Of a stretch of DNA of 64,000 bases, positions 30,150 through 30,953 are shown in pieces. Origin of the DNA: a virus. Its lineage: Duplodnaviria > Heunggongvirae > Uroviricota > Caudoviricetes. A program made the translations under genes and the position numbers. The stretch is taken from IMG/VR virus record IMGVR_UViG_2740892219_000010, positions 1-64,000 of that record. One strand, 5' to 3'. Every line of letters starts with the position of its first letter. The stretch's first letter is position 1. The notes below the pieces were generated by a model. That model saw only the letters and a list, made by a program, of their open reading frames with translations, did no database searches and was not told the DNA's origin.

Positions 30150-30953
30150 ATGGATGTTAATGAATTTCCACCGGGAGTAATCGAGCATCTTGGCTGGTAT
30201 GTCTACCGCCTGATTGACCCGAGAGATGGTAGTACGTTCTACGTAGGGAAAGGGAAAGGTAATCGTGTCTTTGCCCATATGCGCGGTGAGGTTGCTGCAG
30301 TGGATGATGATGAGTTACTGAGTAACAAACTCAAACAACTTCGGGAGATCAGATTAGCTGGTCTTGAAGTTATCCATGTTATACATCGGCACGGTATAGC
30401 TGAAGAAAAGACGGCTTACGAAGTTGAAGCAGCACTCATAGACGCCTATCCCGGCTTGACTAACATCATGAACGGTGCTGGCAGTAACGAGTTCGGTGCT
30501 GCACACATCAAAGAACTAATCGCTACGTACCAACCTGAAACAATTACGTTCCAACATAAAACCCTAATGATATCGGTTAACAGGAGCTCAAAGGATATTG
30601 ACCTCTATGATGCTGTACGTTTTAGCTGGCGTGTCAGCCTTGAACGCGCTCGTAAGGCAGAGGTCATACTGGCGACAGTAAGAGGAATTGTGAGGGGTGT
30701 ATATATCGCAGATGAGTGGCTCAAGTCTACCCGTGAGAATTTTCCAGAGATACCATCATGGGATGCGGATGATGAATTTGAAGCTACGCAAAGTTCCCGC
30801 TTTGGGTTCCGGGGTAGGGCTGCACCTCCTGAGATTACACAGCTTTATTTAGGTAAGAAGATCCCTGATGATCTCAGAAAAAAAGGTGCTATGTCTCCTG
30901 TGAGATATTCTCCCGGATTTGATTTCGGAATGGAACTGGATTTTAGATCGTAG
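30150..30953 (+). CDS. GIY-YIG domain nuclease-like protein (cargo cassette 4)
   Basis: 267 aa from ATG 30150; N-terminus [28 protein letters not shown] fits the GIY-(~10)-YIG motif with downstream Arg; ~170-aa C-terminal region unclassified. Confidence 0.6.

Follow-up and report, generated by a model that had tools for sequence, protein, structure and literature searches.

A 64,000-nt stretch of DNA (hereafter the window) in a tailed-virus record, IMGVR_UViG_2740892219_000010, carries a gene with a GIY-YIG signature directly behind a repeat. The question raised by this locus is whether the gene encodes a homing-type endonuclease tied to the repeats or a nuclease effector of a defence function, two possibilities that an earlier, sequence-only reading had left side by side. 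The second one stood, since the gene falls into the validated single-gene PD-T4-3 (CMoRE) family, and the first did not. The 267-aa protein is very probably CMoRE/PD-T4-3, a nuclease that restricts T-even phages in dependence on 5-hydroxymethylcytosine (5hmC) or glucosyl-hydroxymethylcytosine (5ghmC), whose gene forms a lysogenic-conversion cassette within a lambdoid E. coli prophage. The features of the locus are listed in Table 1.

Table 1. Features of the CMoRE locus and the surrounding cargo region (window coordinates).
Feature	Position	Strand	Basis or remark
Variable cargo region, four repeat-bounded cassettes	26993..31044		backbone breakpoints against strain 1439; repeats; neighbour scans
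Cassette, 125-aa protein	27357..27734	-	without family match; looks membrane-spanning by eye
Cassette, DUF6650 protein	28177..28653	+	Pfam, 7.2e-16
Cassette, 251-aa gene	28934..29689	-	no PADLOC match, no Pfam match over the curated cut-off
Repeat R3, bipartite inverted repeat, cassette junction	29973..30038		repeat families D1/D4, inverted pair I4; pattern searches; alignment
R3 L-half ATGTCCGCTCCTCGCTCACAGCGGGTC	29973-29999		repeat alignment
R3 R-half GTCCACTCTGTGCCAGGAGCGGACAT	30011-30036		opens the CMoRE cassette
Sigma-70-like promoter candidate TTGTCA-17-TATTTT	30088..30116	+	consensus scan, 9/12 matches; palindrome TGTCAATTGACA within
Shine-Dalgarno AGGTG	30138..30142	+	7 nt before ATG 30150; read from sequence
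CMoRE/PD-T4-3 coding sequence, fourth cassette of the array	30150..30953	+	PADLOC, PHROG and PDB matches; ORF listing
N-terminal GIYxY-YIG nuclease domain, ~residues 1-112	30150..30485	+	boundary approximate, inferred; Pfam PF22945 over 28-110
Y17	30198-30200	+	nuclease domain; role per PMC12923530
Y19	30204-30206	+	nuclease domain; role per PMC12923530
Y31	30240-30242	+	nuclease domain; role per PMC12923530
R39	30264-30266	+	nuclease domain; after YIG
Acidic run D52-D53-D54-E55 in inserted loop	30303..30314	+	autoinhibitory 'safety catch'; function from 4A mutant, PMC12923530
C-terminal 5hmC/5ghmC-sensing domain, ~residues 120-257 (start approximate)	30507..30920	+	full-length alignment to 9u7u_A, 9u75_A
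Y127	30528-30530	+	C-terminal sensing domain
Allele-specific 10-aa tail	30921..30950	+	not in the crystallised 257-aa proteins; present in the E24377A allele
Right-hand junction	31016..31044		E24377A homology ends at 31015, backbone resumes at 31045; blastn against L001, L002; annotation of E24377A and strain 1439

Coding sequence and upstream region

The ORF noted in the sequence-only reading was confirmed; it was intact and encoded 267 aa followed by a stop codon, with the GIY…YIG…R…H motif at residues 16–43. The mechanical ORF call began at an upstream codon, ATG 30126, which yields 275 aa. Judged from the signals around it, the true start is ATG 30150 and not ATG 30126, because the Shine-Dalgarno sequence is placed before the former, homologues use the equivalent start, and the latter is not conserved. 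In a PDB sequence search, the equivalent MD(I/V)NEF formed the start of the crystallised homologues, and ATG 30126 was missing from the E24377A and APEC O1 alleles in the allele alignment.

The repeat R3 ended 111 bp upstream of the start codon, which agreed with the reported position of the gene directly after it, and a promoter-like site lay in between. This site is a candidate for the CMoRE gene's own promoter. The site and the sequence around it were kept in the three alleles of the window, E24377A and APEC O1, and the Shine-Dalgarno region was likewise conserved across the alleles compared. The promoter-like region also held a perfect 12-bp palindrome, TGTCAATTGACA, at 30093–30104 in 3/3 alleles compared, which could be an operator or an overlapping pair of -35 boxes. 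A terminator scan found no canonical intrinsic terminator after the gene or at the repeats.

Family identity and domain architecture

The protein matched the PADLOC profile PD-T4-3 (PDLC04031) with E = 1.5e-137, residues 1–255 aligning with positions 1–254 of the 256 in the profile, and it matched phrog_5356 ("unknown function") with E = 1e-132. The PDB sequence search returned 9u7u_A (E = 2.5e-164) and 9u75_A (E = 2.4e-151), both aligned over residues 1–257 without a gap. A direct comparison showed that 240 of these 257 residues (93%) were identical to CMoRE of E. coli APEC O1, and the E24377A allele differed from the window protein at 4 positions. By its sequence, the gene thus belongs to the known CMoRE (PD-T4-3) family and is a near-identical copy of a characterised and crystallised restriction enzyme.

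The N-terminal nuclease domain proposed earlier was borne out by Pfam PF22945 (LEM-3-like GIY-YIG; E = 7.3e-13, 49.2 bits against a cut-off of 27, residues 28–110) and by the crystal structure of the 93%-identical protein. The generic Pfam GIY-YIG model PF01541 stayed under its threshold (12.5 bits against 22.6) and an NCBIfam scan of the protein gave zero matches; as evidence against a GIY-YIG fold, these two results were overruled by PF22945 and the PDB match. Membership in the GIY-YIG superfamily rests on the LEM-3-like subfamily model and on the crystal structure. The C-terminal region of about 170 aa, which had been called unclassifiable, is the structurally defined 5hmC/5ghmC-sensing domain (PMC12923530). 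The two-domain architecture, a GIY-YIG nuclease at the N-terminus plus a C-terminal modification sensor, corresponds to that of the solved structures by sequence alignment only.

Published function of the family

The gene is already known through its family, which was functionally selected in 2022; its modification dependence followed in 2025 and its structure in 2026. E. coli ECOR68 was the source from which PD-T4-3, a lone GIY-YIG gene, was first obtained (Vassallo et al., 2022, as cited in PMC12923530); the main text of Vassallo et al. (2022) mentions only 'a GIY-YIG nuclease', and the string 'PD-T4-3' is absent from it. Liu et al. (Nat Commun, 2026; PMC12923530) renamed PD-T4-3 CMoRE, with structures of the E. 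coli APEC O1 (9U7U and 9U7Z) and O157:H7 proteins among PDB 9U7U, 9U7Z, 9U75, and 9U8D. In their work, CMoRE reduced the plating efficiency of T2, T4, and T6 about 10^5-fold without abortive infection, and cells survived at MOI>1, which denoted direct defence for which a single gene sufficed. Binding was restricted to 5hmC/5ghmC DNA, and only such DNA, not DNA with C or 5mC, was degraded in vitro and in vivo, T4(C) being resistant. The enzyme is a tetramer that cuts at a loose site, CN11/N9G, and leaves 2-nt 3′ overhangs. Its nuclease domain has the motif "GIYxY-YIG" (Y17, Y19, and Y31) and is structurally most similar to UvrC; autoinhibition is exerted by an acidic loop of 15 residues, and the 4A mutant was toxic and cut normal DNA. 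The C-terminal domain bound 5hm-dCTP, which was contacted by Y127, and the authors found no homologues of this sensor fold (PMC12923530). A 48%-identical homologue from Capnocytophaga cut T4 DNA but not T4-GT7 DNA, and at high enzyme concentration it also cut Mu DNA (PMC12366544). Deletion of PD-T4-3 in its native host, NILS69, rendered the strain sensitive to two Tevenvirinae phages.

Functional residues and proposed mode of action

The residues to which these functions were assigned were all found in the window protein. Y17, Y19, and Y31 were present and made up the three-tyrosine motif; the run of four acidic residues matched the inserted α2–α3 loop; V92 and L96 of the oligomer interface and Y127 of the 5hmC contact were retained. 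R39 and R80 were present too, and R39 is probably the catalytic arginine by its position after YIG. The 17 substitutions relative to APEC O1 fell at residues 3, 8, 58, 62, 73, 83, 138, 164, 165, 172, 201, 202, 205, 215, 224, 226, and 234. None of them (0/17) affected Y17, Y19, Y31, R39, D52–E55, R80, V92, L96, or Y127, and residues 84–137 showed no difference from APEC O1.

By analogy with the proteins of APEC O1 (93% identical) and O157:H7 (slightly less), the window protein would tetramerise as a dimer of dimers. Its C-terminal domain would bind a flipped 5-hydroxymethyl- or glucosyl-hydroxymethyl-cytosine, and one dimer would read a pair of modified cytosines spaced by about 21 bp (CN11/N9G). 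The GIYxY-YIG domain, with Mg2+ or Mn2+, would then make double-strand cuts with 2-nt 3′ overhangs. The acidic loop would cover the active site, so that the unmodified DNA of the host and of the prophage would be spared, and incoming DNA of T-even-type phages would be destroyed directly and non-abortively.

The window allele, with its extra tail, is presumably expressed in the lysogen and active like its homologues. The published constructs defended from native promoters, the APEC O1 allele weakly so (PMC12923530), and for this reason expression of the window allele is not assured. The 10-aa tail, the 17 substitutions, or the downstream deletion junction might also leave the allele silent, less active, or with a changed specificity; this would fit with that weak defence from the native promoter, with the lack of a tail in both crystallised proteins, and with the substrate plasticity of the family, which extends to the carbamoylmethyl-adenine of Mu and, weakly, to arabinosyl-hmC (PMC12923530, PMC12366544). 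We regard such an allele, the main remaining doubt, as improbable, for the ORF was intact and the named functional residues and the promoter region were conserved. The tail arose by a 1-nt indel relative to APEC O1 that shifts the stop codon; its presence in the E24377A-type allele, which was found in 6 complete genomes and 3 viral contigs, speaks for its being tolerated.

Prophage context and cargo region

According to its sequence, the window is from E. coli and the gene lies within a lambdoid prophage. The backbone around the gene was 99% identical to a lambdoid prophage of many strains. In strain 1439 its order was antiterminator Q, DUF1364/DUF1367, ImmA/IrrE, cargo, ORF6N antirepressor, replicative helicase, YdaT, Cro/CI, and integrase. 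Because backbone homology to strain 1439 stopped at 26992 and resumed at 31045 (blastn), the sequence in between is strain-specific cargo; its GC content was low, about 41–42%. An 81-nt direct repeat, 90% identical between its copies at 26638–26718 and 31235–31315, brackets the whole variable region, and the first copy forms the 3′ end of a 201-aa ORF (26114..26719). The genes of the 125-aa protein and the DUF6650 protein recurred as a pair at 98% identity elsewhere, among loci L002–L014.

The CMoRE unit, 29973–31015, was 97.3% identical to the unit in E24377A and SE11; in those two strains an HNH gene, a hypothetical gene, and an LprI-family gene come next. In the window, the cassette ends on the right in a deletion junction, since only the final ~120 bp of the LprI-family gene were left as a 3′ remnant (31045–31166). 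In APEC O1, the gene was located at the end of a different, ssrA-linked prophage, beside a frameshifted DUF262 gene. A gene-only megablast found the gene in 120 of 5,426 complete E. coli genomes, each with a single chromosomal copy, 6 of them at 97.9% and 114 at 90.6% identity; 97.9% at the DNA level was the best allele identity in the complete E. coli RefSeq genomes, and none was higher.

The neighbours were thus not conserved, and the flanking genes had no PADLOC match, so the description as a stand-alone cargo gene was upheld. In keeping with a single-component system, the neighbours differed between the window, E24377A, and APEC O1. A multi-gene defence system was rejected, as the three neighbouring cassettes yielded no PADLOC match (0/3) and, in Pfam, only DUF6650.

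Repeats as cassette boundaries

Besides R3, the repeat was found at 27848–27919 and 28747–28818, and a lone right half at 26969–26996; the pattern searches had 0 matches expected by chance. A junction consists of an L-half, ATGTCCGCTccTCGCTCACAGCGGACC, a spacer of ~18 nt, and an R-half, GTCCGCTcTGTGCCAGGAGCGGACAT, the two halves being approximate reverse complements of each other. Units were constantly ordered R-half, gene, L-half in the window and in the related loci with repeats, for instance with repeat halves at 3979–4002 and 5160–5183 in locus L015 and at 836–859 and 2933–2956 in locus L017. Homology breakpoints between genomes coincided with the repeats, and homology to E24377A began at 29973, i.e., at R3. 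As single-stranded DNA, the repeats R3, R2, and R0 folded strongly and R1 did not. An Rfam search gave nothing at the gathering score near the repeats, and the sole match with E≤1 in 26500–31500 was a chance snoRNA match.

The junction pattern was present in 11 viral contigs. The repeats are generic cassette boundaries and not a feature of the nuclease, because the same family bounds every cassette and 8 of the 11 repeat-bearing viral contigs lacked CMoRE. The functional link between the nuclease and the repeats that had been suspected from their proximity was therefore not supported; the APEC O1 allele, for its part, retained only a degenerate remnant of an R-half.

The window cassette 28826–29995, with the 251-aa gene, was 96.4% identical to the single cassette of Peduovirus P2_2H4, which occupies the fun(Z) hotspot, with the tail-fibre and sheath genes on its two sides, and is bounded by one R-half and one L-half. 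The same 251-aa cargo in a lambdoid prophage and in P2_2H4 indicated that one cargo occurs in two unrelated phage backbones. The 251-aa gene is a candidate for an unknown defence or exclusion gene. A check of the phage P2 genome found the same repeat halves on both sides of fun(Z). Inverted repeats flanking fun(Z) were already reported in 2004: as a review sums up that work, fun has inverted repeats on both sides, which make site-specific exchange possible (Nilsson et al., 2004). The fun(Z) cassette shares its R-half, gene, and L-half boundaries and the repeat family with the window. It differs in its cargo gene and in being one cassette between the P2 genes G and FI, whereas four cassettes stand in tandem at a lambdoid prophage site in the window.

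With considerable reservation, we speculate that the R/L repeats mark an integron-like cassette-exchange system, in which each unit consists of an R-half, a gene with its own promoter, and an L-half. The units were single at the fun(Z) site of P2 and stacked as arrays in lambdoid prophages, a layout like that of integrons with no recombinase evident. Repeat-bounded units may carry CMoRE and other defence genes from one phage family to an unrelated one, and multi-cassette arrays with validated defence genes in lambdoid prophages, together with the enzyme responsible, may so far be undescribed. The cassette context shows a route by which such genes pass between P2-like and lambdoid prophages.

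Homing endonuclease or multi-gene system

It is highly unlikely that the gene encodes a GIY-YIG homing-type endonuclease whose cuts in or close to the R repeats would propagate its cassette. The gene does begin shortly past R3, and the R-half upstream of it was retained in E24377A and three viral contigs. However, the same repeats bound cassettes with unrelated genes, most repeat-bearing viral contigs as well as P2 and P2_2H4 were without CMoRE, and APEC O1 has the gene with hardly any repeat left. The published enzyme requires 5hmC/5ghmC and spares ordinary DNA, and its C-terminal domain is a modified-base sensor and not a sequence-reading DNA-binding module (PMC12923530); Pfam and NCBIfam scans of the window protein also found no DNA-binding module. 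The gene occupies a promoter-bearing cassette within variable prophage cargo, and no intron, intein, or conserved target gene contained or adjoined it. Full-length homologues of about 40% identity in jumbo phages are in part annotated 'putative homing nuclease', which is the depositor's label only.

These homologues (39–42% identity, both domains) occurred in lytic jumbo phages of Serratia, Pectobacterium, Pantoea, Klebsiella, and Pseudomonas, for example in Serratia phage Moabite (6406–7161) and Pseudomonas phage OBP (158703–159449). They may instead serve, like CMoRE, as weapons against rival phages whose DNA is modified.

There is equally little to be said for a toxic nuclease effector that depends on a sensor or antitoxin encoded next to it, as part of an abortive-infection or multi-gene system: the gene lies within an island of small unknown genes and an HNH gene adjoins it in E24377A, but the neighbours vary between contexts, the lone gene gives defence with survival at MOI>1, and self-control is built in through the acidic loop (PMC12923530).

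Comparison with related enzymes

The window protein shares with CMoRE/PD-T4-3 the full-length two-domain architecture, the 93% identity to APEC O1, the GIYxY-YIG motif, the acidic loop, the dimer-interface residues, Y127, and the occurrence as single-gene prophage cargo. It differs by 10 extra C-terminal residues and by its substitutions, which were conservative, and its gene stands in a repeat-bounded array of a lambdoid prophage in contrast to the ssrA-linked prophage end in APEC O1.

PvuRts1I and AbaSI, the 5hmC/5ghmC-specific type IV enzymes, resemble CMoRE in modification-dependent cutting aimed at T-even phages. Like it, they cut at a fixed distance from two modified cytosines and leave 2-nt 3′ overhangs. 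They combine a PD-(D/E)XK nuclease with an SRA-like sensor, whereas CMoRE combines GIY-YIG with a sensor fold to which Liu et al. found no homologue. Neither PD-(D/E)XK nor SRA-like domains were found in the window protein by the Pfam scan; membership in the PvuRts1I/AbaSI family was ruled out by this result and by the GIY-YIG nuclease.

The catalytic fold and the Tyr/Arg/Glu chemistry are shared with I-TevI, the Seg proteins, Eco29kI, Hpy188I, and the N-terminal domain of UvrC. Unlike these, CMoRE has a third tyrosine (GIYxY) and an acidic insertion of 15 residues. In contrast to GIY-YIG homing endonucleases, a modified-base sensor replaces the sequence-specific DNA-binding domain, and the homing context is absent.

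The window gene is one more allele, with a 10-aa tail, of an enzyme with a published phenotype, biochemistry, and crystal structure, and little is at stake in it. RefSeq names such genes only 'LEM-3-like GIY-YIG domain-containing protein', and NCBIfam is without a model; such genes can be given the functional label 'CMoRE/PD-T4-3, 5hmC-dependent type IV restriction endonuclease'.

Other features of the window

A second, P2-like prophage at 43805–64000 directly adjoined the lambdoid one. It contained an integrase (43805..44806, minus strand), a gpA replication protein (48831..51653), a ParM-like protein (51730..52689), an Ead/Ea22-like protein, a portal, a terminase, and a P2-type capsid. Its gpA, with 940 aa, is presumably longer than the A protein of P2. 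The genes between gpA and the portal, at the position of the old/tin hotspot, had no PADLOC match.

In the lambdoid backbone, an ImmA/IrrE metallopeptidase (25616..26104, plus strand) was recognised by Pfam (7.7e-18) and as capP-like by PADLOC (2.4e-25). It is followed by the 201-aa protein mentioned above (26114..26719, plus strand), which had no family match, and the pair was conserved in the backbone beside the cargo. On the other side, Rfam matched isrK (80.4 bits) and the C4 antisense RNA (73.7 bits) with its a1/b1 targets at 32181–32378 on the minus strand, just upstream of the ORF6N antirepressor gene (31341..32177, minus strand). The isrK/C4 RNAs and the ORF6N gene form an antisense-controlled antirepressor module of the P1/P7 immI type inside the lambdoid prophage.
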